Positions 32,281 to 62,000 of a DNA stretch of 64,000 bases are shown here, one piece after another. A program made the translations under genes and the position numbers. Source of the stretch: a virus (Duplodnaviria > Caudoviricetes); IMG/VR virus record IMGVR_UViG_3300021399_000008, positions 32,001-96,000 of that record, one strand, 5' to 3'. The notes under the pieces were generated by a model. That model was not told the origin of the DNA and searched no databases. It was given only the letters and a program-made list of their open reading frames with translations. Position 1 is the first letter of the stretch; every line of letters starts with the position of its first letter.

Positions 32281-32769
32281 TTATAAATGTTTGTCCTTAT
32301 AGTAATCACGCATTGACTTTACTGAAATCCTGATATCATGTTCAGGATCTGTATAGAATTTTGCTCTGGCTTCTGACCACGGAGATTCTGATTGGACACT
32401 AGCTGCGAGCCACGTAGTTCCTTTGTCTCCGTATTTCAGGATAACAGTGGATATAACGGCCCTGCCTTTAACTGGAATCTTCTCAGAATCTCCGATCATA
32501 TCTGCAGCTGTGAGATTCGCCCTGTCTCTGTAGAACTCATGGAGTTCACGGCAGAAAGGTCCGATCCTCCAGGCTTCAATAGCTTCGTGGAACAGCTTCT
32601 TCCTGAAGGTTGTGTAGTACCAAGCTTGTGAATAATATACCTAGAGCTGGAGCTTCATAGGGGATATTGGCCCTGTAAGCTCGACGATGTATTTCGCGAC
32701 ATCAAATACTGTGACCGTATCACTATCGATACTGATTAAATTTTTTATTCGCTTTTCTTTGTTAGCCAT
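32281..32769 (-). CDS. SocA/Panacea (DUF4065) antitoxin-like protein with an in-frame TAG at 32641
   Basis: VFDVAKYI...MKLQL*VYYSQAW...IEAWRIGP...SESPW; * falls at the conserved Leu of KLQKLxYY. Confidence 0.85.
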
Positions 32770-32770
32770 G

Positions 32771-33112
32771 TCAGCCGTTAATCTCCTCAGCTTCTTCTTC
32801 GGGATCTTTAATACCGCTCTTAATCATATCAATGTTAAGGTTGTACCAGGCAGCTTTAATAGCATCCAGAACTGTCTGGCTCTCAATATCAAATCCTTCA
32901 GCCGAAAGCCTGTCGAGTACAGCCTTCAGTTTCTCGTCTCCGTTATGTCTGCCGTACTCAGCTTCGACTGCGGCTACAAGTACCTTTACGGAGGATAGTA
33001 AATCATTCTTGTCAAGAAAGGGACGGATATACCGCTTCCAGACAAAAGCTAAACATAAGCCAAAAGCGCTGATTAAAATACACACGATCAAAGTTCTGAT
33101 TCCTGCATCCAT
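32771..33112 (-). CDS. Holin, LL-H-like
   Basis: N-terminal TM segment; VAAVEA..G...GDEKL and IKAA motifs; lysis cassette position. Confidence 0.7.
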   Translation of the reverse strand: MDAGIRTLIVCILISAFGLCLAFVWKRYIRPFLDKNDLLSSVKVLVAAVEAEYGRHNGDEKLKAVLDRLSAEGFDIESQTVLDAIKAAWYNLNIDMIKSGIKDPEEEAEEING

Positions 33113-33135
33113 TCGGGGATCACTCCTTATCTGTC

Positions 33136-33441: not shown

Positions 33442-33936
33442 TTAGTTCGCCTCAACCGGAGCAGATTGAATCTTCGCTATAAAATCTTCCGGGATATGGT
33501 TATGCATACCATTCTCAGTATAGATTTTGTACATCCGCTCTAAACTGGTCAGTTCATTGTATGAGATTGCGTTACGTCGAACGCCGTAGTGCATGTAAGC
33601 CCACGTTAACTTTTCGTTAATCAGGGAACATGTCTGACTGTCGAGGCTTTTAACCTGTTCTTTTATCTCATCAATACTGCCCATAATCTGGCGCATGTCT
33701 TCTTTCCGATCTTCGTCTCTGCGCTACTGTTCTTCTCTGATCTTCTTTATTTCTTCCATCACATCAGCCGGGAACTTCTTAGCCTCTTCGATATCGAGAT
33801 GATGCTGGTGGATACGACGTCCAATAACTTTAATATTTTTCCAGAAAGCAACAATAAGACCTACTCCGGCTGCGACAGCTGCGAAAGCACCCCAGCCGGA
33901 AGATATAAAACTCATAAAATCAGACATAAAGACCAC
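33442..33936 (-). CDS. Membrane-anchored lysis-cassette protein; one gene through the in-frame TAG at 33724
   Basis: TM N-terminus; IREEQ*RRDEDRKEDMRQ joins two in-frame ORFs; C-terminal MYKIY...GMHN motif. Confidence 0.7.
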
Positions 33937-33959: not shown

Positions 33960-34862
33960 TTATCCAGAAATACCTGCGTTTTTTAAGGCATTTACCAGGG
34001 ATCTGGCGGCCTCGATGTCTAACTCGATTCGTACTGTACTCGAGGAATTCGGCTGATTTTCTCCAGTAATTTCTGTAGATCCGGGAGTTATCTGAGCTTC
34101 GACTAAGAACTCGGATTTAATATAGCCGTTAATCGGTCTTCCTCTGTACGTTAATTCGACTTTAGACCAGGTATCGTTTACCTGTTCAGCCGAAACAATA
34201 GTACCGACAGGAAGCTGGATAATCCTGTCGGAGTCTGTAGAAGGACGTTTACGAACGTTAACGCTCTTTCCGTCCTGAGAAGTAATCTTAGCAGTATACA
34301 TCGCATCGCCACCTGTCGTTATAGGAATTTCAATAGTTACTGTGTTCTCGTAGTTTACGTCCTTCAGCTCTCCCCAGTGTGTCCAGCCTGTAATTTTCGA
34401 CTGAACTACACCTGTCTTGGAACCCTGAGCTTCGATTACTTTACCTTCTCCGATATAGAGACCGATATGATAATACCGTTTCTTAGGATCTGGGTCGTAT
34501 TTAAAGACAGCTGTTCCAGGTAGGAGAGTCTTACCGTCAGTACGGTAACCATTCCGCTACTCACCCTTAGCTGAGAGAACGTTCTTAGACCAGATAGAGT
34601 TTGAGCCATGGTAGATTGTTTTACCGTGGCGTTTATAAGCCCAGACGAAGAGTCCGCTGCAGTCAGAGACTTTATGGCCGATCCACTTCTGCCCATACTG
34701 AATAGACAGGTTGTAGTCAGAGTCTCCGCTGTGTCTCTTAACCTAGTCATCGTAGCTGGCACGAGTCCAATTCTGGCCTGAGGTTCCGAGGATATAGCCG
34801 AACTCCTGTTCGAGAGCTTCTTTAAAGTCTTTAATCAGATCAGTGTACAGGATCTTTCCCAT
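33960..34862 (-). CDS. Endolysin: NlpC/P60 peptidase plus SH3b domain; in-frame TAGs at 34743 and 34557
   Basis: FGYILG, DCSGLF, YHGSN, HIGLYIG..VIEAQG; SH3 VNVRKRPS...GYIKSEFL; invisible to the standard code. Confidence 0.9.
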
Positions 34863-34877
34863 CGCACTCACCTGACC

Positions 34878-36009: not shown

Positions 36010-37167
36010 ATGGAGCGGATAAATTCTCTCGAATTATTCTGCGGTACTGGAGGATTAGCGCTGGGTTTACAACAGGCAGGGTTCGACCATAAAGCTCTGA
36101 TCGAATGGGATAAAGACTCCTGCGAGAATATAAACGCGAATATTAGAGAAGGGTATGAACAAATAAAAGACTGGAATGTAATCCAGTCAGATGTCCGGGC
36201 TATAGATTTCGAAAAGCAGTTCGAAAGAATTACTCTTGTGTCTGGTGGTCCTCCATGTCAACCTTTCTCGTTAGGAGGGAAACACCTGGCATATAATGAT
36301 AAGCGGGATATGTTTCCTCAGGCTGTTCGAGCCGTAAGAGAACTGAAGCCGAAAGCTTTTATCTTTGAGAACGTAAAGGGTCTGCTGCGCCAATCCTTCA
36401 GCGAATACTTTAACTATATTATCCTTCAGCTCAAGTATCCTGAGATTGTTCCTGAAAGCGGAATGGACTGGAGAGAACACGCTGAACTGCTAAAGAAATA
36501 CAGTGAAGAGAAAACTGATGGGTTAACCTACTCAGTCCAGTATAAACTTGTTAACGCTGCAGATTACGGAGTTCCACAACAAAGACATCGTGTCGTAATT
36601 GTAGGATTTAGAAGCGATCTTAATGTTGACTGGAGTTTTCCAGAACCAACACATTCAAAGGAAGCTCTCGAATATTCGAAGTGGATAACTGGAGAATATT
36701 GGGATCGACATGGACTTCAGAAACCAGAAGCACCTAAATCAACAGAGAAAATTACAATTCAAGCACTTACAAAGAAACCGTGGAGAACTGTTCGAGATGC
36801 GTTAGCAGGTTTACCTCAACCTTCTGAAACCAATACAGCAGTACCGAACCATGAATTTCGAGGAGGAGCAAAACAATATCCTGGCCATTCAGGAAGTGTG
36901 TTGGACGAGCCATCAAAGACAATTAAAGCCGGAGCTCATGGTGTCCCTGGCGGGGAAAACATGATTGTTCTGGATGATGGTTCGCAAAGGTATTACACAA
37001 TTAGAGAGAGCGCAAGAATTCAAACGTTTCCTGACAACTATATCTTTCACGGTTCATGGACTGAGAGTATGCGACAAATAGGAAACGCTGTACCTGTACT
37101 TCTCGCAAAAACAATAGGAGAGTCTGTGTATAAGCAGTTGGAGAAGGTGGTTGATCGTGAGCAGTAA
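36010..37167 (+). CDS. C5-cytosine DNA methyltransferase
   Basis: LFCGTGG, GGPPCQPFS, FENVKG, QQRHRV, RESARIQTFPD and QIGNAVP motifs. Confidence 0.95.
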   Translation: MERINSLELFCGTGGLALGLQQAGFDHKALIEWDKDSCENINANIREGYEQIKDWNVIQSDVRAIDFEKQFERITLVSGGPPCQPFSLGGKHLAYNDKRDMFPQAVRAVRELKPKAFIFENVKGLLRQSFSEYFNYIILQLKYPEIVPESGMDWREHAELLKKYSEEKTDGLTYSVQYKLVNAADYGVPQQRHRVVIVGFRSDLNVDWSFPEPTHSKEALEYSKWITGEYWDRHGLQKPEAPKSTEKITIQALTKKPWRTVRDALAGLPQPSETNTAVPNHEFRGGAKQYPGHSGSVLDEPSKTIKAGAHGVPGGENMIVLDDGSQRYYTIRESARIQTFPDNYIFHGSWTESMRQIGNAVPVLLAKTIGESVYKQLEKVVDREQ

Positions 37168-37789
37168 TACGCTGAAAATCATAAAGCCGTTTAATCCTTT
37201 AGATAAAACAAATCTCGGCGAAAGCGTAGCAGAGGCTGCGATGAAGTCACCTGTTCAAAAACTGCCGCCAGAACCTTTTATTGGAGCAGGCGTCTATATT
37301 ATCTACTACGTCGGAGATAACCCTATATATAAGCAAATCACTGAGAAAAACAGGAACGGAAAGTTCTCGTGTCCGATTTACGTAGGCAAAGCTGTTCCAG
37401 CCGGAGCCAGAAAAGGTGGTCAAACAATAGACGTATACACAGGAACTGCTTTATATAAGAGACTGACAGAGCATAGTGAATCAATAACAGCCGCTCAGAA
37501 TTTGAAGCTTCAAGATTTTTACTGCCGCTTTCTTGTAGTGGATGATATATGGATTCCTTTGGCTGAGACATTGCTGATCGAGAAGTTTAATCCAGTATGG
37601 AATAAGGTTCTTGACGGATTTGGAAACCACGATCCTGGCAAAGGAAGATATGAAGGAAAGATGCCGTACTGGGATTGTGTTCATCCGGGGAGAGAATGGG
37701 CAGCTAGATTGCAGCCATGCAGATACGGTAAAGCAGAACTGGAAGAGAAGGTATTAGCTTACTTAAACGAACAGGACCTGATGTTATAA
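37151..37789 (+). CDS. Eco29kI-family GIY-YIG type II restriction endonuclease
   Basis: GAGVYIIYY, PIYVGKA, RLTEH, WIPLAE and DGFGNHDPGKGR motifs; coupled to the MTase. Confidence 0.88.
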   Translation: MIVSSNTLKIIKPFNPLDKTNLGESVAEAAMKSPVQKLPPEPFIGAGVYIIYYVGDNPIYKQITEKNRNGKFSCPIYVGKAVPAGARKGGQTIDVYTGTALYKRLTEHSESITAAQNLKLQDFYCRFLVVDDIWIPLAETLLIEKFNPVWNKVLDGFGNHDPGKGRYEGKMPYWDCVHPGREWAARLQPCRYGKAELEEKVLAYLNEQDLML

Positions 37790-39598: not shown

Positions 39599-42500
39599 TC
39601 ATAAACAAAAACCAACAATAACATCACAATTATTTGTTAATGCGGTTCTGTTAGCGTACGCGGTAGCGGTCGACGTGTTCGGAACTGTTAACCCATAATT
39701 AGATTCTGCAGATTCTGCATTAATGCTGGTTCTCTACCAGAAGGATGGTACACTGCTCCCCGATGTGGTATATTTTATTCGAAGTACAACGTTACTTATT
39801 TGATCATATACTGCGCCGCTGTTTTCTATCTGATACCATGCGCTAGCAGATTTTCTAAGTCCTAATTCTCTGCTTGAAAAAAGCCATATATCTTCGTCTG
39901 AAGTAATATCGGTTCCTGTTGGATCTTTTGTTACTTTTTTAACAGTTTTTATATTGGATTGTATGATAGTTGGAAGTTTGCTTTTAAAACTTTTGATTAC
40001 GCTGCGAAGCTCAAGCTCTGAATATGGAACAGCTTCGTCAACACTGTGTGCCCTATGTGAAAAAACGGTTGTCCGAAAAGCCCATGTTGTTTTTGCAGTA
40101 GAAGCATCATTATCAGATAATATATCTTTGTCAACACCGATTAACATTGTTTGATATCGTTGTCCGTCGGCTTCTATTGTTTTTATGGATCCTATCGGGT
40201 ATTTATCTACGTTTCCAGAATTTATATTACTTATTATAGTATCCCAATCGTCTGAAATGTCTTCAAAATAGCCTAAAGGATAACTATCGAGCGGCGCAAT
40301 CATATACTTACCCCACGTAATATGGCTTCTATATAAATCTAACAACTCGGGACGTACGTAAATCGCTCCAAGTTTCTTTTCTATGAAAGTGCCGGAAATC
40401 GCGTTTACATCGTTTATTTCAGCAACAGTTGATGAATGGATTACTAAATGTTTTATAGGCTTGTTCCTCAGCTGAGCGTTGAGATTATCGGTGTTAAACT
40501 GAAGATTGTCTAATTGTGTAAACTCAACCGTTTTTAAGTTTGAGCACGAGTTAAGCCCATTGGGGCCAATATAAGTAAAAGGACCGGAGATTTTTGTTAA
40601 TTGTCCTTGACCAATCAACCCTGAATCAGCTATAGTGGAATTATTTATTGTTTCATATATTTCCAGTTTTCCCCGAATATATTTAGTCACATCGTTGCTT
40701 GCATCTGCGTATTGAGCTACACAAACTAGATTACCGACAATATTAATAGGCTCTGGTGACCATCCTGTGAACAAATAGTCATCGGTATTTCCAGTGCTGT
40801 TGTTTGTGGGTGTTGTTTCGGTATAATTCGCACTGCCGCCATACGGAACATTATTCACAGTCTGAAGCGTATTATTATCCCAGTTCTTAAACGTCACAGT
40901 AAACGTTCTGAGTTGACTCGTAAACACAGGATATAAGTCACGATCTTCAGTAACATTCTTCAATGCATCAGGATCCATTACTCCATCTACATACCGCGCC
41001 CAACCATTTGCAAATGTGAATGTATGGCTTGCGCTCTGCGGTTTGGTTGGTGTAGATCCAGTATAAGTGACAGCTGCTCCATTAGCGGAAGTTTTTGTCT
41101 GAAGCACGCTGGTTCCATCGTAATTATAGAAACGAACCGTGCAATTAATTGTGTTGTAATCTATCGTGATATCAGGATATTTATCTTTGATTTGCTTCGT
41201 AACTGCACCGCTTACAGTGTCGATATGGATCGTTCCATAAACCTGAGCTGTGTCTACGTTAAGCCCCTGTTCGTTGCGACCGTGTAAACTGTCAAGTTTT
41301 GCTTTTATCGCAAGCAGTTCAGTCTCATCTGCTACTGTCCAATCGAAACCAATTAAACGAAGATTACTGCCTTCAGTTAATCCGTTCACCAGAGTTTTTG
41401 TATCGATAATATTACCAATATTCTCCAGCGTAACGGTTGTCAGATTCTCTTCGGAAGCTAACACGAAGTCTGTAATATTCGGCTGATTAATAATCTCAAG
41501 GTTTGTGATCGTTCCAGGCAGATGCAGTGTTTTAATTATGCCGCCGTTAGGAAGCTTTACGCCTTTAATTGCAGTGCCATCGAAGTAAATATGTTCGATA
41601 TTCTTACAACCAGATAAATCAGGAGGGGTTGTAAGCTTATCGCCATAGTTCGAACAGTTACGTACGTCTAATGTCTTCAGCAGCGTGTTATTACCAAGCG
41701 TCAGGTTCTCCAGGTTCGGGTTATTATAGTTCGGATCTGCGTCTCCAAGCTTAAGACTCTGAAGTTTTGTAGCATAGGAGAAGTTCGCGTAACCTACCAG
41801 CAGCGGAGAAAGATCGCCTACACTCGCCAGCTGAGAAGACGAGTAGATATAAACTTCGGTATCGTTCATCCTGTCGAGAGGACATGGAATTGTAACCGAA
41901 GTATTTCTTGGAGTCTTTCTGGATACCTGCTCAACGTCCTGAGTACCAGAATCCTTCGAGCCGTACTTAATTGAAACATAGATATCAGCATACGGAGTTA
42001 CTGTTATATCCGCTTTGTTGTAGGCACGAAGAGTAATAATATCAGACAGCGCATTACCTGCGAGATATTTACTGTCAGTGAACTTAAGTCTGTTATAGAG
42101 CCACCACTTACGCTGTTCGGTTTTACTGCCAAGAGCCATCTCGAGATAGCTGCCGTCACATTCGTCGATCAACGGAGCGATGTATTTATAATAAGCGTCT
42201 TCGTTAAAGATCGTCTCAGGCCATTTGGATTGATGGTCTTCGAACATCTTTTCAATAGCCTCGTAGCTAAACGCATCGTTAGCTCTCAGGTCTTTGTACA
42301 TTCTCTTGATCTGAAGACCGAAAGCCTTTCGTACGTTTCTCCACTATACGCTTTCACGACCGTTGTAAACGTCCTTTTTGCCGTTATTATAAGTATCCTC
42401 GTCTTCGAGGTCGTAAGAGAAAGTCAGGTGACCTTCGTTGTTACATGTCTGTTACTTTGCTGACCTGTTCATACAGGCGGGAACGGTTCTTCTTTAAGTG

Positions 42501-43349: not shown

Positions 43350-46349
43350 TTATGGATTTTCTTCGGAGTTAGGTTCTTCTGTGCTGTCGTCACTGCTTGG
43401 TTCGACAATAGGACTGCCCATAAAGGACGGGAACATATTCTTGGCTCGGCTATCAACCATCAGGAAAATCTCAGTGAAGAGATAGTAGTAGATAGCGGAG
43501 TCCAGTTCCATGTAATCAGGAGCTTCGTCTCTGAACTTCGCGATACGATATTCGGCTGTGTCGTTATTGAAAGTTTTCGTAACAGTAACAGTGATTCCTT
43601 CGGCAGGTTCTTCGAGCCAGGAGTACGTTACAGGAGAAGCCAGCGGTTCATTCGTAGCAGTATCAGGATCAGTAGACACAATCCAGGCAGCGAATTCGGC
43701 AAGCTGAGTAGGATCAGTATACGGAGGATCTGTATCGGGATAACGAGCTTCGAAGTCGGTAAGCCAATTTGTACCGCTGTAATCCGCAGTTTTGAAATGG
43801 ACAAGATCCGTACCGTTGTTTCTAACTTCCCAGGATTCGTCCCCGGAAACGAAACCAAACACGTCAGAAGTACTCTTGTCGTTGTTCCAATTGTATTTAC
43901 CGATAAAGGTAACTGTCTTAGTGTTCGGGTTACGGTGGAAAATAACGATAGGTATACCGTCAATACCCTGACGGACGTTGCCGTTCTTTTCCTGGGCTGG
44001 TGTTTCGTAGGGACATGTGTCATTATAAAGTCTGGCGAGTTCTACGTTGTTCGCGCCTTCAGAAGAAGCGACGTCAGCTTTATAACAGAAAGTCTTTACA
44101 GGAATAGAGTTGTCGCGAATCTTCCACTTGGAAACAGTCTCGCCGAAACGGTTCAAGAAGCCGCCATTATACTTAACCTTATAGTTCTTTCTCTTATATC
44201 CCGCAGAAGAAGTACCCTGAACGTCCATCTCTGCTCCGGTGAAAGTAAAGCAAGCATCAGGATCAGTCGGATCAACATATTCTCCGCTAACATTCTTCTT
44301 TTTGTCGCCTTTAAACTGAGGAAGCTGCGGCGTCTCAAAGATAAGGTATGGGAGATCTCTCGGAAGCTTATCGATAACAATTCGCTTATCTTCCATAACA
44401 TTGTTTCTGTTAAAGCGGTCAAGCATCAGACCTGTATCCTGAGTATCCGCAATCCAGTTCTTAACGATATCGTCGCTGGAGAGAGCTGTATCGTACACTC
44501 TGATATTATAGATATCCAAAGTGCACTTACCATTACCAAGGGAAATATCTACAGCTGAAGGCTGAGAGAAGTCGTCGTTGTCCGGATACTGAATAACTGC
44601 AGACAGAATACCGTTAATATAACAATACAGTAAACGGTTCTTGCTTCTCGGCTCGACAACAAACGCAAGACGAATATGTTCATCTTCCTTAAACGGTACG
44701 TAGATAGAAGACTGCTGAGAAGTCAGAGTAGCGCTCTGAGGAGTAGCAGTAAATCCACGTCCGTTCGAAAGACAAGACATAACAATAGAGTCGTAGTCTG
44801 AAACGGAACTTGTAGCAAACTCAAATTCAATTGTCTTACCAGCAGTACGGAAGTCTTTCCCGAAGATTTTATAAGGAATAGTTACTCTTGCTTCGTTTGA
44901 AATACGAAGGACAGAATAGCCATCGTCGTCCGTTACCCAACCGTTAGACACGTAATCAAACCCGGTGAGCGCGCACTCTATATCGTTATAGTTCCATTCA
45001 GCCTTATTTGCGTCGACGTTACTCCTGCCTGAACTGGTAAGATACAGAGCCAGGTTCTCAGTCTCAGGCTGGATATCGATCTCAGCAGGAGTTACTTCAA
45101 CCTGCAGTGTTCTTGTCGTACCTTTACACGCAAACTCGTACGTATACGTTCCTACAGAGTCCATACGAGGATTGTAGTCATAGATTCTGCGTTCAACCGT
45201 AGGCTCAGCGACAACCGTTCCGTTTCTGGAAATCGTAACTGTCGTAGACATAGACGCAGGATCATATACTGAATACAGAATATGGATCGTGGTGTACTGA
45301 GGAACAGAAGGGGTCTCGAGCTGGCAGGTAATAACAGGAGTAGGATTCTGCGCGTCGACACAGATGATCTCGAAGTACAACTCATTCGAGCGAACAGTCT
45401 GGCCGTTAATCAAAGCATCAAAGTACATTCTGAGAGTATGCATGCCATGACTCTGCTTCGGAATTGTAATAGCCATGTCTCGGTCAGAAATCGTTGTAGT
45501 AAACGTCTCGATCTCAGTTCCGTCGAGAATAAAATGCATCGTCTTCATAACGCTGCCGATAGGTCTGTACGGAACATCGATAGCGCCGAAGTAAGGAGTC
45601 GAAGTATCGAACGTACTCTTCAGTTCGAGTGCTACAACGATAACGGTACAGCGGAGAGAACGTTCACTGCCGTAAATATCCGTTACGGTAATAACAACCT
45701 TATTCGTACCCAGGTCAAGGTGAGGTGCAAGGTCGATTGTATTATCTCCCTGTGGCACATTAAACACAGACTTGATCGTGTTGTTCACCATAATCCTCAG
45801 AGAACCAGGACCAGTAGAGATCTCGTTTTCCAAAGACGACCACGTGAACGACATCGGGCAGGATGCGCTCTGTGGAACTGTAGTAGTCAACCAGTCAGTT
45901 GTATTGCGGATCGTGATCGTGGCATTACTTGTGTCGCCGCCGCCTCCACCGCCGCCGCCTCCACCGGAGAACGGTCCAAGAGGTCCGGCTACAACAACAC
46001 CATTACTTGTAAGGTAGAGATATCCATTCTCAGTAAAAGCGCCGTCAACCTTTGAGTCAACAACGTCTTCAAGAATAGCTTTTGTTTCGTTATCCACGAA
46101 TCCAGTTACAGGACCGACGATTATTTTTCCGTTAGCTGTAGCGTAAAGCTCACCGTTCTCCATGTAGATCGAGTCGACTTTATTAGCTCTCAGTCTTCTA
46201 ACGTCGTCCTGCAGTGTATTCGAAGCACCTGTCAGAACACTGATATCGGTTCTGGCTTTAGCGTCCTGCACCTCGAACTCATACTCTTTCTAAGTATAGT
46301 CCTGCGCATCCTTCGCTTTTATTTTGAGATGATGTAAGGGTTCAGCCAT
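43350..46349 (-). CDS. Large tail protein with LamG-like and CotH-kinase-like N-terminal half; in-frame TAG at 46290
   Basis: GGATGTG RBS and ATG at 46349; DYT*KEYEF; poly-Gly; VQGTSS.GY.RKNYK, KAD..SSEGANN, GKYNWNNDKS and DSRAKN motifs. Confidence 0.8.
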
Positions 46350-46968: not shown

Positions 46969-47556
46969 TTAATACGCGAAGAGGGTACTGCTTATTGTGA
47001 CAGTACCTTTCTTGTCGCTTTCTACGTAGATCTTCGATTCTTCTATCGCGTCATGAAGTTCTTTCTTCGTCGCAAGCAGTTGGATCTGTTCCTGCATATC
47101 AGCGACGTCTTCCTTCGCCTGGTCGATATCGTCCATAGCGGCATTCAGCTTATCCAGTTCGACGTTAAACGCAGCAGCAAGAGAGTTGTAGGAGGAAGTC
47201 TCTTCTTCTGTATAATAAGTCGTAGTAGGCTGAGCTCTGGGGATTACAGGAATCTTTATCGTATACACCGTATAGCCTGAACTGCCTACGGATTTGTAGA
47301 GATAGCAGAAGATTGGCTTGCCTAAGGAAAGTAAAGCGTCAGGAATCTTCAGAAGAAGAACGTTTCCTGACTGAAGTGAGCCTCCAACATTCAGTGACGT
47401 GTTCACATCTGCGCAGGAGAAGTGGCCCTGCTAAACTGAATTCGGAGCGTTAAACACTCTGAGAGTAATACCATGGTCCCACTGATAGAGCGGTGAAGAT
47501 GTAATGGTATAGATATCGTTTCCAAACCTCACAGAGAGTGTGTTATTTTTTACCAT
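46969..47556 (-). CDS. Baseplate/tail-associated protein (YQWD family) with an in-frame TAG at 47431
   Basis: LYQWDHG...NSV*QGHFS...IPDALL...PRAQP; only the read-through version matches its paralog over the full length. Confidence 0.75.
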
Positions 47557-50500: not shown

Positions 50501-51919
50501 AAGGAGTTTCGGTCCCTGTCTCTGAAAGTTCGCGATAGCCTGAATTGCGTCGTCAGTTAATAACCCTACCTCGTCGTAATAGTTAAAGTCCATTACGAAT
50601 GAGAACCAGTTCCGTACATCTGTATTGGAGATATAGGTAACTGTAGGATAGCTGAGGTTAGGAGCTGACGGTTCGTCATAGACACGGTAGGCCATATCGA
50701 CTTCATAGTTATAGTCGGGGTTCAGAGGATCTGTTCCAGGGTCCGAAAGATCAGGGTCTTCAGGAACGAGTTCGCCGTCGTCTTCGCTGACGAGATCATC
50801 GTCACCGCCAGAAGAACTGGAAGAACCTGAAGAGCTAGAAGAACCAGACGAGCCGGAGGAAGAACTTCCGCTCGAACCAGAACCTTCTACGTACAGAACC
50901 GTATCGTCGTAGACATACATCATAGACGCAGGATCCAGTTGAGAGAAGGTAAACGTGTGCTGACTCGTAATCTGACCAAGAGGAGCTTCAGTCGGTTTAA
51001 AGTACTTCGTAACGACAATACCCTGTGCGTTCGTATACTGGAACCTGATCTCAGTTTCTGGGGCTACTGAGCTGTTAATCCTGAACTTCAGTTCCTTATG
51101 GGTACATTCGTCGATTCCGCAGTATCCGTTCGTCTTATCGCCGTAAGCTCCATAGGCATACAGCTTTGTTCTAAGATTCTCTGTGTTCAGAGTGCGGGTA
51201 ATATTCTTTACATTATTTCCATAGTGGAGTTCGATTACACCTTTAGCCGTCGTAACGTCTGGAACAGTTCCGTCCTTCGGTTCAGAGAAAGGATTCATCG
51301 GGACAATATCTACCGTCTTCGAATCTCCTCTGAAGATAGGTTTCGCATCAAACAACTCACACATCTTAGAAATCAAAGAGAAGGCCCCGGTCTTCTCAGA
51401 GGCTACGAGTGAACGGTACTTAACAGTTACACCGTCGTCCTCATAGAACTTCGAGACAACACCTTTCGTCCAGCCAGTACCTTCGAGGATCACGTCCAGG
51501 AAAGTATCTGGGGTTCCGACGTTATTGCCTTCGTCGTCTGAGAATACAAGACCGAGGTTCTTATACTTCAGCTGCTGCGAAACATGTCCGCATATAGCTG
51601 TCACTGTTCTGGATTTGTTTGAGTGCGTAATCTTAGGTTCAGAGATTATGTACCATTCAGTCTCGTCTTCGTTAATCAGTCTGACTTTATAGTCAGCCTT
51701 CATAAACTGAAGACGAGGATTCTCTTCCTTACCGTTCTCTGTCTCGATAACTGTCGGGAGAGTAAATGACTATTCTCGCCAGCCGTTACGGGAAGTAGAC
51801 TCAGTAATACCAGAAGCCTGACCTGAGACATCGCTGTTTGAATCATAAAGGTTACAGATCTTATTGCCGGAGTAGTCGAATATATCGATGATACATAATC
51901 GTTTATAATTTATCGCCAT
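47573..51919 (-). CDS. Tail tip/Tal-like (prophage endopeptidase tail) protein with an in-frame TAG at 51770
   Basis: GAGG RBS; NGWRE*SFTLP; YGNNVKNITRT..TKLYAYG; WREFGSGNGF; downstream of Dit. Confidence 0.8.
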
Positions 51920-51930: not shown

Positions 51931-53028
51931 TTAATAGAATGTGGGTTTGTACACAAAATTTAATCTGGTTATGCTCATCTTTGTAACAGGACGGATCGAG
52001 AGTTCATTCATTCTGAAGATAACGGCCATACCTTTAAGATCAGCTGATAGGGAAGTGCCTACCGTGATCTTATTTGTATTTGTGTTAACTGCGGTAATCT
52101 TATATCTCGTTCCTCCTGACTGTGCGCAGATATACTGACCAATCATATCTTCTGAGAGTATCTGGTTATTTACAGATAAGTTATTAGAGTTTTTCGCGCC
52201 ATTTACGAAGACATTTCGGTAACAGGGAAATGCCGGGGAGAGCTGGATAAAGCCGAAATCGTGGTATAAAAACCCATAAGTTACTGTAGAACCGTTAGTA
52301 ACGAACGTCTTACCGTTAAGTCCGTCGCACACAATCCACTTTCCGACATTCGTAGTATTCGACTTCGTCCCGCCGATAAACTTCATCTGCTGGCCAGTAG
52401 TAAGGTTGTCTATAATAACTCCTGTTCCAAAGTCTCCTGCGATCTCAACAGCTACATCTGCCCTGGCTGAGCCTGGGTTAAAGAGCTGGAAGGTTTTCTC
52501 GGCAGTAACAGGAGAGGAGCTTGTAGCGAAAGAAGTAGGAAGGTTCCACGAACTTCCTGCCATCATGGCTGAGTTCAGATAGATATCCTTACTGTCAGGA
52601 TCTGTCGCTTCGATATACATTTTGTCACACCGTGCGAAAGGGTAGTAACAGCGGACTGTCATACTCTAGAGACCGTTCTGAGGATTAGGCAGCATCTGAA
52701 TAGTAGGAGGAGTAATCACTGTTGCCATATAGTAGTTCCACGGTCTGCGTGAGAAAATAAGTTTCGCTGTTTTACCCGGAGCAAATATCTGGTGGAGTCG
52801 GGCCATAAAGCCGTCCTTCACGTTCTGTCTTTCGAATACACAACGGAGATTGAAATCCTTCGGCTGAAAGGTAAAGCCGTAGTAGTAGCCGCCTTCGTGT
52901 CCGTCAAACTTCTGCTCGTGCATAATCGCCTGAGCAGGACCCCAGACATAGACGTCAGCGTTCTCAGGCACATATGTTAATCCAAGAGAGGCGATATCAA
53001 TCCCGTCAAAAGTAAAGCCGCCTTTCAT
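51931..53028 (-). CDS. Distal tail protein (Dit) with an in-frame TAG at 52666
   Basis: MKGGFTFDGI...LIFSRRPWNYY...NGL*SMTVRCYYPFA; follows the tape measure. Confidence 0.8.
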
Positions 53029-53048
53029 ACAATCACCTCTGACAAAAG

Positions 53049-53088
53049 AATACCCCTGTACTCCTTGTTGAGTGGAGTACAGGGGGAG
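53049..53088 (-). terminator. Hairpin or terminator after the tape measure gene
   Basis: CCCCTGTACTCC...GGAGTACAGGGG. Confidence 0.6.
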
Positions 53089-53095
53089 TGTCTGT

Positions 53096-56000
53096 TTAAA
53101 TGTTAGAGACACTGAGACCATATCTGGAGATCTCTTTCACAAGAGCGTTACCGACGTTCCTGGCTACGGTTTCGTAGTCGTCGTCAGTGTTAATCTCTGC
53201 TTCATTTATCTCAATATGGATGTCTCCGATTGTGACATTCGATTCCGAACCTAAACCAGATATAGCTGCGTTCGTAAGAAGTCTGGGGAGGCTGATGTAC
53301 TTAGCCATCTCCATCATCTTCGCGAGGTCTGCGTCCATATCTGTACTGTTCAGGGTCGAAAGAAGATCCCGTGTTTTCGCGATCCTGTCAGCGAAGTAGT
53401 CGACTCTGGCTGTGCCGGGAGCATCGATAAAGTCGTCGAGAGATTTCGTAGCGTAAGCGTCGAGAATCATCTCGGGATCAGCAGGAGTACCGTCGACACG
53501 GATAGCACCCATCCGACTTCTGACCATTTCGGTAGAAGGGATGTAACCACCTTTAGCCATAGCAGTGTGAGTTACGGAAGCAGGACCCATATAGCCAGTC
53601 TTCTGGATAACTCTCTGATTGGCATACATCTCGTAGAGTCTGTCGTACCATTCAGAGTCTATGATGTGAACGTCATTATTGTTCGCATACAGACGACGTT
53701 TCCTCAGTTTAGCCTCGTTATATTCAACTGGACCGTAAACAGCCTGATTCGTTTTGTTATCCCAGAGGTAGTAATACATCTTAGAAGGAGCCGTCTGAGT
53801 CTTCGGATTAGGATAAGTTCTCCTCGTCTGAGTTTGAGTCTTAGGTTTCTGTTCATCCTCGCCAGGCCCAGGTCCGTTGTATGGGATATAATTATCTTCA
53901 ACAGGCTGATCGTATGTCGTATCGTCGCCATTACCAGTGCTGTACGTTCCATAGTTACCGCTGTTGTCATCGTAGTGCGTATAAGACGCATCATCCTTCT
54001 GACCTTTCAGCCAGCGGTCATACATCTGGGACCACTCATACTCGTACATCTGTTTCTGATATTCAGAAGCATTCTTGTACGTATCAGTGTTCCTCATGTA
54101 GTTCATGAACGTATCGTTACTGGTAAGGATACTGGCAACCTCTGTCCAGTACGTATCTGTGATACCCTTCATCTGTTTGTAGGTATCTTCCCAGCTGCGA
54201 AGCATCTGGTGTTGCGAATCCTCAAGACTCGTAATGTATTCATCGACGTTATTCTTGAGCCACTCAAACAGTTCTTCCTGAGACAGAGCCATAACCTCGT
54301 TTACTTCTTCCGCGAAGTTCTGCTCGTTTGAAAGCATCTCCTGCATATACTCGTCGCCATAAGTAATACGATCTTCATATCCCTGGATCTGGTCTTCAAG
54401 AGAAGCCTTCTGAGCAGCTGCCTGTTCGTCCGCGATATCCCACGCGATTTCCTTTTCGAGAGCCGCGATCTTTTCACGGAGAGCTGCCGCATCTTTGGTA
54501 CGGGTAGAGTCCATAGAGATAGAGGCATACTGCCGCTGAAGTTCTGCGAGTTCTTCGTACTTATTGGCTTCATCCTCTGCGTTCTTTCTGCGCTGGAGTC
54601 GCTCATCGATAAGCTTTGACTCATCGGCTAAAGCCTGCTTCTTCTTATCGAGGTCGCGTTTAATCAGATCCCACTCGTTCTGGTAGCGTTTCTTTATCGC
54701 TTCGAGAACGGTCTTCTCCATTTGAACGGTAGCATCAGCCATATCCCGTTCTTTCTGTTTCTGGGCTCTGATCTCTTGGTCAACAAGATTCTCAAGGTCA
54801 ACACGAAGCTTAATAATAGCCTGTCTGTTTTCCTTGATTTTCCTGTTATTCGCAGCGATAGCGTTATTCGCAGATTCGATAGCTTCTTCATAATTAAGGA
54901 TTGTTTGATAGAGATTGAACCAGTCATCTGTACCCTGCTGAGTTACAGCCAGCTGAGCTCTGAGCTGATAAATCATTCCTTCAAGAGAAGCTTTCGTTCT
55001 CTCCTGGGCCTGGTTCTCCAGTTCAAGCATACGGTTATAGTTCGTAATCTCTTCCTGAGTTTCATAGTACTGTTCCTGACTCTGGATCATCTTGATCTCG
55101 TGGTCAAGAAGTTCCTTCTGTCTCTTTATAGATTCAAGAAGTTTCTGAGCGGCTGTCTTTTCCTTCTTCTGAGAAGTAGGTTTATTGTAAGTATACTGCT
55201 GGTTCTTCTTACCGCCGCCGAGCTGACTCTTGGATTTGTATATAGAAGTTGTCTGTTGGTTATTATTCTTTTTGTTTTTCTCAGTAACAAGTTGCGTCTT
55301 AATGTTTCCGTTCTTGTCCGTAGAGATATCCAGTACAAGACTGCCGACAACTCCTTCGTTTTCTGCCAGCTTATCGAGAATTTTCTGCTTGTATTGATCG
55401 CAGAATTCCTGAAGGTCAGTAAGGTCGATTGTTCCGTCTGCGTTAACGTGCGCTTGGATCCATTCAGCAAGTTCAAGAGGTTTGTCTTTAAAGACATTCA
55501 TTAGTGCCTCTTCGAACATCAGCCTTGTAACTTCAGCGTACATTGCATATTTTTCCTGAGCATTCGCCATAGCGGCATCAATAATCTCTTCCAATCCAGC
55601 AGCATCTGCGGCTTTAATTCTCTCAATATCAACATTACTGAACTGAGAGATAGCTCCGAAGATCTCGTCGGCATGAGCCATCTTCGAAACTTGGGCTCCG
55701 CTCTTGCCTCTCACGTCATCCATAGCAATAATGAGATCTTTGATACGGGTCATATCGTCTCCCATATCCTCAATTGCTTTGTTTACTTCCGTTTCAGAAC
55801 CGTGCAGATTTGTAAACACGCTCACAATGGAATCAGCCATAGCGTTTCCTTGGACTTCTGCGCTAGCCCAGTCAGATATCATTTCCTGATAGAGTTCCTT
55901 TTGTTTATCAGCTGTGAATTCAGTCTCTCCTGCGAAGTCGCCCATCAGGCTGCTCATAGCTTTGAAAGAACCGTTGAGCTTTGTGATCATAGCATTCATA

Positions 56001-59000
56001 GCCGGATCAGACATAGCCTTCTGGAATCGTTCAGCGTTGTCAGCATCATCTGGATTGAAGATACCCTGACTGAGCTGAGACATAATATCAGACCCGAAGA
56101 TAGAGTTCATCGTATCTACGCCTCTGCCAAGCATAAAGTTTTCTCCGCTGATGCTGGACGCAGCTGCCGCAGCGAGATCGTCATTGTTCACATACTGAGA
56201 TCCCTTAGAGAGAGCTTCAAGAATAGCGGAAACCATAGAGTCGCTACCTGCTAAACTCTGCACTCCTTCCTATGTCATGCCTTTTTCCTGAAGGAGTCCC
56301 ATAGCATCGTTGTAAGTTCCTGTACTCTTGAATGCCTCAATAAGGTCGAACATCGAAGTAAGAGTTGTATCTCTGTTTGCTTGATTCGTGATATAGTCAT
56401 TAGCAACCTGATCTGCAAGCGAAACGGGAGTGTACGTGGAAACACCAGCTTCATCGTAGATCGCGTACCTTCTGCGATTCTGATCTAATACACCAGCTTC
56501 TCCCTCGGATCCGGCTTCAAGCCTTGGAGGCGGGATCATATCACCGTTATAGTCAACATTGTGCCTTACACCAAAACTATAGTCGCCAGTTCCAGCTAAA
56601 CTCGTAGCCATAAGACCTAGAGTGGGATCGTTAATCAATCCAGATGTAACCATCTCCTGGATCATCTCAGGAGTGATAATCAGTTTCCCATTGCTCGCAT
56701 ACTGGCTGGCAATCCTGTTATAAAGAGTAGGATCGGTTTCAAGATCGGCAAGGAACCGCTCACGCATTGTAGCGCCGCCGTAGTTGAGGAATGAATCATC
56801 TGCTGATTGATTAAGCAGGTTCAGAAGGTATCCAATTCCTTCGGCGTCCATCTTCCTGATTTGGTCTACATCGACATTAGATTTAGACGCAAGGAAGTCG
56901 GCTTCTGCTTTAGTTAACTCTTCGCCACTCTTACCTTCGGCTGAATGTGTGATGTCGCGAATCTTCTCGACATTAGCCATCTCGGTCATGTAATCGCCGA
57001 GAGCTGTAATAGCTTCAGCCGCAGAACCAGAGAGTCCTTTGAGCGTCTCGGAAACTTTATCTATAGACTCGTTGAATTCGTTAGCTCCTTTAACACCGTC
57101 GAGAATGAAAGCATTAGCGAGCTTCTTGACTTCATCTGTAGAAAGATTGAGACCTTTGCGTACCTTTTCGAGGATGGGTTCAAGTTCAGGGAAAGCTTTC
57201 TTTAAAGCTTCGAGCTGACCAGCCCCGCCTTCTTCAAGATTGAATGCGTTCAGACTAGACTGTCTGTTCTGTTTCCCGAACAAAGAGTTATCGACATTTC
57301 CTGTTATCATCTGGCTGAGCCAATTGTTCCCGAATATCTTAGAAAGCCAAACGTTGTAATCGTTGTTCCCGTACTGGTTCGTTCCAAGAACGGCTGAGTT
57401 AAAAGCTTTAACCAGTTCGTCGACAGTCACGCTCTTATCTCCGTTGCTGGCAGCAGCAAGGAGATTGGAGAACCCTGTATTCTCTTCCAGGAACTTAGTA
57501 GCTAACTCGTTGTTGCTGAAGTATTTTTGGAAGTACTCAACAATAGCGTCAGTTGTTTTGAGCATTCCGCTATTCATGACGCCGAACATACCTTGCGTCA
57601 TTTTTGTTGTCCTGTTGGTCTCATCCATTGCCTGTTCTCTTGATGTGAATACGTTATCAAGAAGTGATTTACCTTCTCCGAGCGTAATGTCGCCTTCGAG
57701 CTTGATAGTGTCTGGCTTGATTACGATATTACCGTTTTCCAAAGCAGTCACGAAAGAGAAATTCCCAGAGTAACCGCGAGCTTGTGCTTCGGCAATTATA
57801 TTCTGCAGATACTGGTTTCCTGTTGCGCCGGCAAATTGGCTGGCTTGATCAAAAGACATAGTCCCAGTCTTTGCGAAGTTAAGCGAAGTAAGAGTATCCC
57901 AGTTCATCAATGAACTCAGATCGGCAATAGTCATCGTATCTTTTTTAATAGCTTGCTTTATTGAAACTTTAAGACTTTCGGCTATTACCTTGCCTACGTT
58001 ACTATTAGCTCCAGAAGAAGCCTCGTCCGCGATTCCTGTGAATATCAGTTCAATAACATCAGCGCCGAGTTCTTTAATCTGAGCTTCTTTCATTCCAGTG
58101 ATTTCTTCGATAAGAGCAAGCCCGTCTGAATCAAGAGCAGAACCAGAACGCCCACGGTTACGAGTGACTATCGAGTTCATATCGGCGTACTTCTGAATAT
58201 TTCCAAAGACTTCACCCATAGCTGAGAGCTTAGCCTTTGTTGAACTGGAAGTTAGATTCGAAATCGACTCAACAACTTCTTGAATGTGCTGATTGTATTT
58301 GTCAACCGATGTTATACCTTCGGAAATAAAAGCTTGAGCTAAGGCTAACTGCTGTTCTTTTGTGACGGTTTCACCAGCAGAAAGAGTGTTGAGTACTTCG
58401 GTTAACCCTGAATATTTACTTTCAAGCTGCCCTATAAAATCAAGTATACCCTGATCTTCTGTAGTGCCAAGATAGAAACGTCCTGTATAAGTGCCGCTAA
58501 GCATCTCGCTTAACCAGTCCTGGCCAAGTAACTCGTCCATCATCCTGGAATATTGCTCATGGCTAAATGAGTTACGCCCTGTGGCTGCATCATTCAGTTG
58601 ACGTCTAAAATCGTCAAAGCTGAAGAAGGAACTGCCACTCTGCAGAGAATACCACATGTTGAGAAGCGTAGGATTTTGAGAGAGAATAGAAGGTAAATTA
58701 TCCACAACTTCTCCGTATTCGCTTGTTAACCCAGAATTGAAAGAATTGATGTCTGAATAATGTTTAGCTATATTATAGAATTCAAACAACGTGTCAGTAA
58801 AAAGAGGGCTTTCAGCGGACTTATTTAAAACAAGACCTTCTACGGTTTTGCTTGGGTCGTAATACACCTGCTGATTATTTTTATTTTTTATATCGTAAGC
58901 AGAGATCCCATTCGTTCTTGCGTAGTTTAAAGCAGCTTCCTGCGTTTCAAAACCCATCCCGCCAACGTTAAACGCATACGCTGAAGCATCGGCCTGTCCT

Positions 59001-62000
59001 TGCAGCATAGCAGCACGAGTAGCCGGATCCGCATACCTTAATTGAAGAGCGAAAGTACGCGGCGTATTATACATCTAGTCTGGCAAGTTATCGTAAGATA
59101 CGCCTTCTCTAAAATGCCCGTTCTCGTCCCAGATAGCATTTCTTGTGAGGTTTGTCAGTGCGCTGGTTACTACGTCTTTATCTCCAGGAGTGTATGTCGC
59201 AACAACGCCTACAGCTTCCTGTATAAGTTCATCGACAAAGTTTTTCTCAAGAGTAGCCCAGTTATCCTGAAGCTTACTTCTGTGCGTACCCGACACAAAA
59301 TCAGTTCCAAATGAATCCAATAAGTAACCAAACAGGTTACCTATAGCATCATCGGAATTTGCTCCACGGAAAGACTTAAGCCCGTTGTCTAAATCGTCGA
59401 TAAACATTTCAGCCATCGATTTGTCGCCTGACACATACGGGGACATGTTCAGTCCAGAAGGCGCTAATTGCAACACTTCATTTAAAGAAGTCTTAACTTG
59501 GGATATATAAGATTCTCTATCTGGAGAGCCTTCGAGGAAGTTTTTGTTTTTAAAGTTAAGCAGAATGTTGCCTAACTTTTTCGCGTCTTCCAAATTGTAC
59601 CCAACAGAACCTTCAGGAATTAAACCTAATGAAGAGTTAAGTATTCCGAATTGAGGGCCATAGTACGATTCGTTTGCTGCATTCTTAAATACTTCTACGC
59701 TCGAGTATGTGCGGGACTTCTTTAAATCATTTAGTTTGTGACTATACTCCATCCCGAAGTTACTCATAGCCCACTCGTCGGCAAGAGCTAATGCTGTGTC
59801 ACTTGTAGCCTTATCGAAATCACCTGCTGATTTCTTTGCTTCGGAAACAATCTTTCGCCATCTCTCAAGAGTGTTTGTTGTAGTGTCGAGATTCTTGTTG
59901 AGTGACGGGAGAGCCGTAGTTAAATCTTTGATATTTTGTTCAAGCTCTTTAGTTTCCTTGGCTGATAACTTGGAACTACCAGAGAAGTCCTTGTATTTAT
60001 TGGCTAAAACATCAGATTCTTTCAGGTACTTTCGAATGGTATCAGATTGCTGATTCCTATTATTTACGTAGGTGTTCAGCTCAGAGATCTTAGTACTAGA
60101 CTCCGCAGCTCTAGATGAAGATGAGCCAGACGGGATAGCGCTTCCAAGTAATCCAGCTCCAGCAACAACAGCGCCACCAGCAAGAAGGCCAAGCAAAGTA
60201 CTAAGAGGACTAGATACGCTATGAACTACAGCCATAGCAACGCCGAGAGCAACGACAGCAGTGGTTATTGCTCCGATTGTTCCAATAGCTTTACCACCAA
60301 GAGTAAGTACGTTTTTCAAACCGTTCAGAATAGTTGTTCCTATTTCAATTACGCCAGTTAATACACCATCGTCTTCAAGAGCCAACACAAAACTGTCAAA
60401 CGTAGATCTGAGTTCCTTCAGCCTTGCGTTAATTGACTCGATCATAATCTCATACTTGCTCTGCGTGATACCAGAACTGTTCCCAGATAAGCCGAGGTAT
60501 TTAGCAAATGTCTCTCCGTTATCTTCCGACAATCCTTCCATAAGCGTATTAAACATGTTAGCGCTTCTGGTTTGTGCAAGATTAGAAGTAACAGCTGCCT
60601 TCTGGACATCAGTCATCGAATTCCACTTCTGAGCTACTTCAAGAAGGATTTCGCTGGCAGATTTAAACTCGTCCATACCCGCGCCTTTACGCATCTCAAT
60701 ACCAGCAATCTTCAGAGCTTTTTCTACGTTATTCAGCGTAGTCGTTTCTCCGTTAATCTCCTTAGAGTAACCACTCATGGTAACATTTCTCATTCGGGAG
60801 AAGATAGTATTAAGAGCTGTACCGACCTGCTGACCACTGAGCTGTGTCATAGAGGTCATGACAGTAATCATTGAGTTGAGCTCGTTGTAAGACACGCCAG
60901 CAACTTTAGCTGAAGCCGCACACTTCTGCATAGCTTTCGAGATTTCCTCTGCTGTTGTAGCAGCGGAGTCGCCGAGCGCTACGAGTGCGTCCATAGCCTC
61001 TTCAGCGCTTCCGACAAGATTATTCCTTAAGGCAGTTGTAATAATCTTAGTTGCTGTTGTAGTCTTAATCTGAGCAACAGTTGCGAATTTAACTATAGCA
61101 TCAGTCTGAGAATCGACTTCAGCGTCAGAAAGACCTTGACGATAAAGCGCCGAAGTAACATCAGCCACCTCTGATGTAGAAGCTCTAAGGTTAATTGCTT
61201 TATTAACCACACCAGTACGAATACTCTGCATCTCTGCATTTGTTTTCATGGTGATTGCCTGGATCTCAGTCATCGAAGCGTTGTATTCCATCACAAAGCG
61301 TTTCGCTTCGTTAATAGCTTGTTGAAATAAACGTCTTCCGAACTGCTGAGTTAAACGGCTAACTCCAGCAATAACAGTATTAAGACCAGCGGAAAGTTCA
61401 GCATGTGTACCAGTAAGCTTATCAATAGCTGCTTCATTTTCTTCTATTGCTTTTGTGTATTTCTTGATATCGATCTGAGCTTGCTCGTATCGCTCATCTG
61501 TCGCTGAAATACCTTGGAGTCCGATAACCTTCTCATTAAGACCTGCGTTTATCTGCTCCAGTTGTTTAGCCTGGGCTTCGTATCGATCAAGCGATTGTCC
61601 GTATAAACCAGTACGGCCAGCTGTTTTGCCGAATCCTAATTTGCGAAGATCGGCATATTTCTCAAGCTCAGAATCTACTTGCCTGTCGTGCTCAGTGCTG
61701 AGTAATTTCGCATATTGCTCCGAATCTAGTTTATCTATAGCGGATTTCTTCGTAGTATACTCGTCTTTCGAAATGCCGCCTGCTTTGTATAACTTCTCAA
61801 GATCTTCGTACTGTTTGTTAACGCTGTCTTTGAAGTTCTTAATAGCCTGTCCGTACTTATGTAACGGGACGTCTGTGCCGTTCTGTTTCGCAAATAGATC
61901 AGAGGTTGTTTCATCGAGAGATTCTGCATACTCTTTATAGAACTGCTCCCTCTTCTCTTTCATTTCCTTTTCTTTTTCGACGGCTTTCAGGTAAGCAGCT

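Follow-up and report, generated by a model that had tools for sequence, protein, structure and literature searches.

Why should a phage carry in-frame TAG codons, few in number and often close to the start, in the genes for its tail, head and lysis proteins? The question is raised by a 64,000-nt stretch (the window; all coordinates refer to it unless noted) of the viral record IMGVR_UViG_3300021399_000008, which comprises bases 32001-96000 of a single phage contig of 116,328 bp. An earlier note on this DNA had proposed that sparse TAGs in "most late genes" form a suppressor-gated timer of lysis and assembly. The analysis reported here shows that TAG is a sense codon in this phage, read by the phage's own tRNA(CUA), and that the TAGs of its late genes are concentrated within the first 50 codons. 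The position of TAG within genes is the firmest and strongest of the new results, and it is from this result that the possible purpose of the codon is discussed below.

The contig is classed in IMG/VR as having direct terminal repeats (terminal overlap, 127 bp), with a CheckV completeness of 100% and a GC content of 45%. Its plus-strand arm (~1 to 63.6 kb of the genome) carries accessory, replication and nucleotide-metabolism genes, with a tyrosine integrase gene at its end; its minus-strand arm (64 to 116 kb) carries a Panacea-domain gene, holin-like and endolysin genes, and the genes for tail, head, portal and TerL. The labels "early" and "late" derive from gene content and strand, and "late arm" designates the minus-strand arm. 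TerL is 25-31% identical to its counterparts in SPbeta, phi3T, phiCD211 and c-st and 40-52% identical to those of many uncultured contigs. Relatives were located in metagenome-assembled genomes (MAGs) of Lachnospiraceae, Acutalibacteraceae and other Clostridia. The phage itself is temperate and SPbeta-like, a siphovirus of gut or rumen Clostridia.

Reading TAG as sense merges the fragments predicted under genetic code 11 into proteins of ordinary size. TAGs lie inside single Pfam or PHROG domains of two proteins encoded in the window, Tal and the endolysin, and of five encoded beyond it, namely TerL, the portal, the capsid protein and the phrog_2729 and phrog_3314 proteins; domains or homologues also run over in-frame TAGs in Dit and the tape measure. 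Because domains span the TAGs, the late proteins are not made full-length without a suppressor. In three near-identical contigs from other samples, no TAG within the covered stretch has been lost. A gene for an amber-suppressor tRNA(CUA) of Leu type, with a short variable loop, lies at 7313..7389 (+; ARAGORN; Rfam tRNA, 50.9 bits) and adjoins the gene for its paralogue, a tRNA-Leu(UAA) that reads TTA (7146..7220, +); the two are 74-77% identical. At the columns of this phage's internal TAGs, relatives show L, I, V, M or Y, and for this phage Leu was found at 38 of the 86 TAG cells of the relatives' TerL and portal. The build of the tRNA and the alignment columns point to leucine as the amino acid inserted at TAG. 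The TAG columns do not align to glutamine and the suppressor is not Gln-type; genetic code 15 (TAG = Gln) is not the code found here.

The codon is used sparingly, about 1.3 times per 1000 codons. Coding density was 0.842 under code 11 and rose to 0.884, 0.861 or 0.877 when TAG, TGA or TAA, respectively, was read as sense, a comparison that is not decisive as a test of genetic code. As a check on reinitiation, Met was looked for within four codons after TAG and was found in 5 of 41 cases, about the level expected by chance. The base 3' of TAG was A in 11 cases, C in 8, G in 7 and T in 2; T is somewhat depleted in a sample too small to interpret further. Between the two tRNA genes (7221-7312) lies a terminator-like structure, a hairpin of 12 bp with a U-rich tract behind it (7248..7300, +), and a comparable hairpin and U-rich tract is found at about 7112-7140, directly before tRNA-Leu(UAA) (7095-7145). 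The fold energies of the two hairpins are -31.3 and -17.7 kcal/mol (z -2.2 and -3.5); a terminator consensus scan called neither. If the hairpins are terminators, the suppressor gene could be insulated from upstream transcription.

Open reading frames (ORFs) were scored with a codon-usage log-odds model trained on long genes. The choice of start codons took account of the Shine-Dalgarno motif, the distance from the gene upstream and how well the skipped segment scored as coding, and the codon numbers of in-frame TAGs are counted from the most upstream start. By this scoring the plus arm codes on the plus strand only, and the minus-strand TAG-containing ORFs inside it are antisense artefacts. 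The same holds for a plus-strand ORF of 383 aa lying over the capsid gene, and an apparent "stop in relatives" at codon 351 of that ORF was set aside on the same grounds.

On these gene models the late arm comprises 38 genes (15,297 codons), 17 of which share 28 TAGs. Within codons 2-50 of the late-arm genes, TAG accounted for 13 of 148 Leu-type codons (8.8%), and afterwards for 15 of 1030 (1.5%; odds ratio [OR] 6.5, p=8e-6), in agreement with the remark in the earlier note that TAGs often stand early in the gene. The rare or AT-rich Leu codons showed no such positional bias (OR 1.3 for TTA, 1.1 for TTG and 1.0 for CTA), so that a simple AT-rich or rare-codon ramp does not explain the clustering at starts. 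None of the late TAGs precedes codon 10, 13 fall between codons 10 and 50, and the first half of the gene holds 24 of the 28. When the fractional positions of all 42 in-frame TAGs of the genome were compared with a uniform distribution, the Kolmogorov-Smirnov (KS) test gave p=2e-5.

The upstream starts that place these codons early are well marked. Late-arm starts upstream of early TAGs have strong motifs (such as AAGGAGG, GAGGTGA or AAGGAG) and lie 1-32 nt after the previous gene, and homology also crosses the early TAG in the portal gene, the phrog_3314 gene, head genes of 104 and 171 aa, and Tal. The SocA/Panacea-domain gene (32281..32769, -) has its TAG at 32641-32643 (codon 43) and a Pfam match at residues 44-131; no start codon follows closely after the TAG, and the upstream start bears an AGGAG motif. 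A holin-like protein of 164 aa with one N-terminal hydrophobic helix is encoded at 33442..33936 (-; TAG at 33724-33726, codon 71). The endolysin gene (NlpC/P60 and SH3 domains; 33960..34871, -) carries TAGs at 34743-34745 and 34557-34559, codons 43 and 105, the second of which is crossed by the NlpC/P60 match (residues 67-161). In the tail region, a gene for a 900-aa protein (39599..42301, -) has a TAG at 39734-39736 (codon 856), beyond which a 44-codon extension scores positive for coding potential, and a gene for a 999-aa protein (43350..46349, -) has one at 46290-46292 (codon 20), its start being preceded by an AAGGA motif and situated 13 nt behind the upstream gene. A 195-aa baseplate-region protein (46969..47556, -; TAG at 47431-47433, codon 42) starts after a GAGGTGA motif and a gap of 16 nt. 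Tal, with YOMG_N and Prophage_tail domains (47573..51919, -), has its TAG at 51770-51772 (codon 50), within the YOMG_N match (residues 37-108), and Dit (Sipho_tail; 51931..53121, -) has a TAG at 52666-52668 (codon 152). TerL and the portal have two TAGs each and the capsid protein has one.

The tape-measure ORF occupies 53096..64000 (-) of the window and runs beyond the window end; in the genome it occupies 85096-99504 and encodes 4802 aa. As the earlier note had it, TAG is very rare here, with two in-frame TAGs (56270-56272 and 59075-59077) in the 3634 in-window codons. The whole ORF has six, four of them in the first 800 codons, and consists of seven same-frame segments separated solely by TAG, with no TAA or TGA between them. 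PhageMin_Tail was found at residues 2102-2309, and tape-measure PHROG matches cover it. For the first 1000 aa of the ORF, neither tblastn against the phage collection nor PHROGs or Pfam gave a match; a YonO-like RNA polymerase in this part is unsupported by these searches. A PD-(D/E)XK nuclease domain was seen at residues 1339-1524. Among the late genes named in the earlier note, TAGs were recovered in the tape measure, Dit, Tal, the baseplate protein, the endolysin, the membrane protein and SocA; the CotH label given to others is not supported, no CotH domain having been found even at E values up to 5.

The claim that "most late genes" carry TAG overstated the case, the proportion being 17 of 38 (45%), or 15 of 26 among late-arm genes of at least 150 aa. 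The plus arm, with 102 genes and 17,519 codons, yielded 13 candidate TAGs, of which five are well supported. Per codon, the late arm exceeded the plus arm with an OR of 2.5 when all 13 were counted (Fisher test, p=0.007), 3.6 with nine (p=4e-4) and 6.4 with five (p=1e-5). TAG frequency is not, then, simply proportional to gene length across modules, and the late bias anticipated in the earlier note stood; the idea of a TAG-free plus arm did not, given the exonuclease, RemA-like and Tad2-like genes described below. The contrast between the arms is real but quantitative, not absolute. TTA, too, is more frequent in the late arm (15% of Leu codons vs 7% in the plus arm; 2.3-fold, p=1e-10), and no late-arm enrichment was found for ATA, which is read by the phage's tRNA-Ile(UAU). 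The arms also differ in the share of CTG among Leu codons (23% in the late arm, 41% in the plus arm) and in their stops (TAA 32 and TGA 6 in the late arm; TAA 64 and TGA 38 in the plus arm).

The remaining plus-arm candidates comprise two TAGs near the C-terminus and six that are uncertain; the supported ones stand at codons 6, 15, 34, 34 and 56. An SbcD-like exonuclease gene has a TAG at codon 34 that is crossed by its phrog_284 match; the protein had no sequence relative in the Protein Data Bank (PDB). The RemA-like gene (PF04025; genome 31776-32333, window -224 to 333) has TAGs at codons 6, 15 and 56, and its product, which ends in an acidic C-terminal tail, is colinear with Geobacillus RemA (PDB 7BM2) over two of the three. 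A small Tad2-like gene (Thoeris anti-defence 2, DUF2829; 4976..5185, +) has a TAG at 5090-5092; its Pfam match begins at the residue after the TAG, ahead of any start codon, and PHROG matches cross the TAG. A TAG is odd in a gene expected to act early. The tyrosine integrase gene (30362..31633, +) has an uncertain TAG at 30389-30391 (codon 10), which lies within the gene only if translation starts at the upstream ATG, which has a GGAGG motif. The two terminal TAGs are those of the DNA polymerase gene and of a gene for a 138-aa protein; back-up stops follow 4 and 10 codons later, and these TAGs are probably real stops.

A set of genes confirmed by Pfam has no TAG at all: nrdD (split), nrdG, dut, thyX, tmk, and the genes for RNA ligase, ArdC, a C5 methylase and the Eco29kI endonuclease, just as the earlier note had listed them. 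The last two form a restriction-modification (R-M) pair (C5 DNA methylase and Eco29kI restriction endonuclease; 36010..37789, +) situated inside the late arm on the opposite strand, which makes it a TAG-free internal control. The HNH endonuclease gene in the late arm (42630-43157, -) is likewise TAG-free. Genes needed without the suppressor avoid TAG, namely the R-M pair in the late arm and the anti-restriction and nucleotide-metabolism genes. The nrdD gene is found as two ORFs, at 1548-2477 (ATP-cone and NRDD positions 2-157) and 2968-4035 (NRDD positions 239-562), and the gap of ~490 bp between them contains a minus-strand ORF of 113 aa; an intron, an intein or the insertion of a homing element could account for the split. 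A formate/nitrite-transporter-like gene (PF01226; 10439-11002) lies amid the phage nucleotide-metabolism genes.

The same features were sought in related phages. A pattern built on the suppressor D-arm and anticodon loop led to five further viral contigs, four of which have TerL homologues with 2-8 in-frame TAGs. A screen of TerL loci revealed an in-frame TAG in TerL or portal in 26 of 94, including relatives of ~50% identity and contigs of four Clostridia MAGs. Nine contigs were taken whole and their genes called in the same way; one of them (G003, with no TerL match and only 6 TAGs) was left out and eight were analysed. Start bias is present in each of the eight recoded relatives (KS p 0.011 to 2e-4). 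Genes of the relatives use the most upstream start, which could inflate codons 1-10, and the bins are reported from codon 11: the pooled late-homologue genes, with or without TAG, have 8.7 TAGs per 1000 codons at codons 11-50, 7.6 at codons 51-100 and 3.1-3.6 beyond codon 100 (codons 11-50 vs rest, OR 2.2, p=2e-5). The sparse recoders are late-biased, and comprise this phage (G000), G010 (complete, 107 kb) and G013. In all eight relatives, accessory blocks (genes with no homologue in this phage) are TAG-poor. Contigs G001-G005, G010 and G011 each have a tRNA(CUA) of their own; the suppressor gene lies directly 3' of the recoded DNA polymerase gene in G001, G002 and G004, and among other TAG-bearing plus-arm homologues in G005.

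No TAG column of this phage is TAG in any relative below 90% identity, and a TerL that is 77% identical (P0003) has an ordinary Leu at column 106. The capsid protein carries a TAG in all seven genomes looked at. On the TerL tree this phage forms a lone long branch within a mostly non-recoded clade, and the recoded state requires at least six changes, at least four of them forced by well-supported branches, with the reservation that "non-recoded" was judged from TerL and portal only and sparse recoders may be under-called. The tRNA(CUA) of G010 (IMGVR_UViG_3300021255_003500, 36159-36247) is 75% identical to an adjacent tRNA-Ser(UGA), and G010 belongs to a sister lineage (TerL 49% identical). 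Columns occupied by TAG align to S, A, N or T in G010 and G013 and to L in G011, G012, G001 and G002. Judging from these tRNAs and columns, one phage family holds two different amber reassignments, one Leu-type and one Ser-type; leucyl- and seryl-tRNA synthetases both ignore the anticodon, according to a passage in PMC11028032. Whichever of the two amino acids is used, the pattern comes back: sparse, biased to late genes and clustered at gene starts.

Beside the DNA polymerase gene, the family conserves the RemA-like gene as part of its core. It has one to three TAGs in five of six recoded phages, at differing columns of the 80-codon DNA-binding domain, and none in five of five non-recoded ones. 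The excess is large relative to genome-wide density and only about two- to three-fold relative to the density at gene starts. The RemA-like protein is a lead as a candidate gated regulator.

On the termination side, no release factor (RF) domain (RF-1 or PCRF) was found in the 116-kb phage genome; this phage has no RF2 gene and no tRNA synthetase gene. The prfA gene scored above the curated cut-off in all four of the Clostridia genomes that carry recoded relatives, one relative being on a 300-kb contig, and the hosts of those four relatives are predicted to read TAG as stop. A host that itself recodes TAG, named in the earlier note as grounds for refutation, is not supported for the relatives' hosts. 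As a stop, TAG has almost disappeared from this phage (at most 3 of 140 genes). It is already scarce in non-recoded relatives, where it makes up 32 of 467 stops (7%) and the observed/expected ratio of the TAG trinucleotide is 0.54; this scarcity fits the "ancestral depletion" step of Borges et al. (bioRxiv 10.1101/2021.08.26.457843).

The best reading of these data, and one towards which we lean with some reserve, is that a suppressor-dependent translational gate operates over the TAG-bearing genes. In a cell in which RF1 reads TAG, a TAG-bearing gene would yield a short peptide unless the suppressor tRNA outcompeted RF1, and the TAG-bearing genes would constitute a translation regulon gated by the level of suppressor. 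The presence of RF1 in the genomes that carry relatives and the lack of a phage RF gene make competition with RF1 plausible. Termination at an early TAG would cost little. The late operons are tightly packed and probably coupled, and in them an early TAG may also leave the downstream message uncoupled and unstable; through such polarity the lock would act on more than a single gene. Genes that work before the tRNA appears, or without it, would stay TAG-free, as do those for nucleotide metabolism, anti-restriction and the R-M pair. The outcome would be a delay in late expression and a second lock on the lytic genes of the prophage. A bolder version, which may well be wrong, holds that the start-clustered ambers are a selected, operon-wide lock acting via uncoupling and polarity, with the TAG-rich RemA-like regulator as the first gated step, and that such locks evolved repeatedly in the family through the capture of a tRNA for leucine (here) or serine (sister lineage), amino acids whose synthetases disregard the anticodon.

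Several observations weigh against a gate. The start-proximal TAGs occupy variable, mostly polar columns, and part of the start bias could come from N-termini being tolerant of substitution. TAG-bearing late genes number 17 for a length-proportional expectation of 13.9 (p=0.10), an evenness that is not significant, and 21 of the 38 late-arm genes are without TAG. The codon is also present outside the late genes, in the exonuclease and the Tad2-like anti-defence gene and perhaps in the integrase gene. Weak suppression would make the six TAGs of the tape measure a costly load. Comparison of TAG positions among related phages, which the earlier note had suggested, showed the columns to be mostly lineage-specific, with a fast turnover that drift would also give. 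Contigs G001, G002, G004, G005, G011 and G012 have equal TAG densities in replication and late genes; since these six denser relatives recode replication genes equally, a late-gene timer is not a family-wide rule, and an early stage of code change would account equally well for a series that begins with sparse recoding of late genes only and ends with dense recoding of replication and late genes alike.

Such an early code change, or passive constraint, was the alternative named in the earlier note; here it is rated below the gate, as a possibility to be taken seriously if not one that we expect to prove right. TAG would be a slightly costly Leu codon that drifts into late genes first and into replication genes later, with its removal from genes whose expression precedes an ample supply of the phage tRNA, and nothing would have been selected as a timer. 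The start bias would reflect purifying selection against harmful, near-full-length truncated structural proteins, together with the substitution-tolerant N-termini. The late bias of sparse recoders, the presence of TAG in both replication and late genes of dense ones, the TAG-poor accessory genes and the four to six or more gains or losses of recoding all agree with this account, as do the lack of conservation of TAG columns, the variability of the start-proximal ones, the non-significant evenness across genes and the rarity of TAG stops in non-recoded relatives. A purely costly codon should vanish, however, yet in late genes 8.8% of the Leu-type codons up to codon 50 are TAG, above the share of TTG or CTA. 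Nor does passive constraint readily accommodate the recurrence of the same bias in lineages that use different amino acids or the repeated presence of TAG in the RemA-like regulator.

The TAGs might instead attenuate dosage, each one cutting the yield by the failure rate of suppression, so that TAG number would tune stoichiometry and not timing. Low-copy products (TerL, portal, tape measure, Tal, endolysin, exonuclease, regulator) would then bear TAGs and bulk proteins few or none. The six TAGs of the tape measure, the pairs in TerL and portal and the single one in the capsid protein speak for this account, several small late genes of no assigned function are without TAG, and the start bias fits the minimisation of waste. 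We nonetheless consider this account unlikely: the TAG-free late genes are mostly unannotated, so that copy numbers cannot be assigned to them, the capsid protein bears a TAG in seven of seven genomes, and the absence of TAG from low-abundance metabolic genes of the plus arm is left unexplained. Far less credible still is the view that the TAGs are ordinary stops, the fused ORFs being adjacent genes, pseudogenes or assembly errors and the tRNA(CUA) irrelevant. An ATG does occur close after some TAGs, for example at 59075/59074 and behind the Dit TAG, and in two plus-arm genes TAG is probably the true end, another stop following 4-10 codons on. Against this, single domains span TAGs, the seven tape-measure pieces share one frame with no intervening TAA or TGA, the three near-identical contigs retain the codons, Met is not enriched after TAG, and relatives show the same pattern, each with its own tRNA(CUA).

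The position of TAG within genes is new and easily tested evidence on the purpose of recoding in phages. A neutral synonym for Leu should show no positional bias; that TAG is in sixfold excess up to codon 50 says that termination remains in competition and that its place in the gene matters. The family provides a natural series that runs from the standard code through sparse, late-only to dense recoding, with at least two amino-acid assignments and repeated origins, so that the capture of a stop codon can be compared directly between sister genomes. Sparse recoders fall under the thresholds of detection by coding density, and as a consequence their late genes are wrongly annotated, in fragments, as with TerL, of which a 432-aa part was called, and with the tape measure, which was split into seven.

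Among known systems, classical amber suppression offers one likeness: ambers in essential late genes make phage growth depend on a suppressor tRNA, and nonsense codons near the start of a gene are more polar than those near its end. Unlike classical amber mutations, the ambers described here are natural, fixed and present in many genes at once, and the suppressor is carried by the phage itself.

The bldA/UUA system of Streptomyces provides another parallel. There, a rare Leu codon is read by one developmentally regulated tRNA-Leu(UAA), and the tRNA-dependent UUA codons cause polarity and mRNA destabilisation in operons (PMC2000904). Both systems involve a rare codon that is confined to certain genes, "late" ones and regulators, and is read by one dedicated Leu-type tRNA; without the bldA tRNA the UUA genes are blocked, with polar, mRNA-destabilising effects. 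The parallel extends to the suppressor of this phage, a paralogue of tRNA-Leu(UAA), and to TTA itself, which is enriched in the late genes. Unlike in Streptomyces, the codon here is a stop, so that failure to read it would mean termination by RF1 and not stalling, and the tRNA is viral; a late rise of the tRNA would be predicted by analogy, the one hint of it in the sequence being the terminator-like hairpin just 5' of tRNA(CUA).

The nearest relatives in strategy are the recoded gut phages of Borges et al. (crAss-like phages, Lak, and the Agate, Jade, Garnet and Topaz clades), in which recoding is biased to late and lysis genes, a late-gene timer being already part of the published model. As in those phages, recoded stops lie in frame within conserved structural and lysis genes, the suppressor tRNA is phage-encoded, other genes are compatible with the standard code, and TAG stops were scarce ancestrally; temperate members and the idea of a prophage lock are also shared. 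The enrichment of the recoded codon in late and lysis genes is common to both, the exceptions here being the exonuclease, RemA-like and Tad2-like genes, with the integrase uncertain. So are hosts of standard code, seen here only for the genomes that carry relatives (prfA in 4/4). In phages with a code differing from that of the host, Borges et al. describe only reassignments of TAG to Gln and of TGA to Trp, whereas the suppressor is Leu-type here and Ser-type in the sister lineage. Helpers of code change (RF2 for TAG recoders, a tRNA synthetase) are found in some of their members and are optional; unlike those members, this phage has neither. It belongs, moreover, to an SPbeta-like family of Clostridia phages, and its density of recoding is very low, the gain in coding density of ~4 points falling below their 5% screening threshold for contigs of at least 100 kb. 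Neither the text of Borges et al. nor what full-text literature searches returned mentions that TAG clusters in the first 50 codons, which is not proof that the clustering is unpublished. Relative to the literature searched, the idea of a late-gene switch is itself published, and two things are added to it here: the location of the TAGs at gene starts and the Leu-type tRNA.

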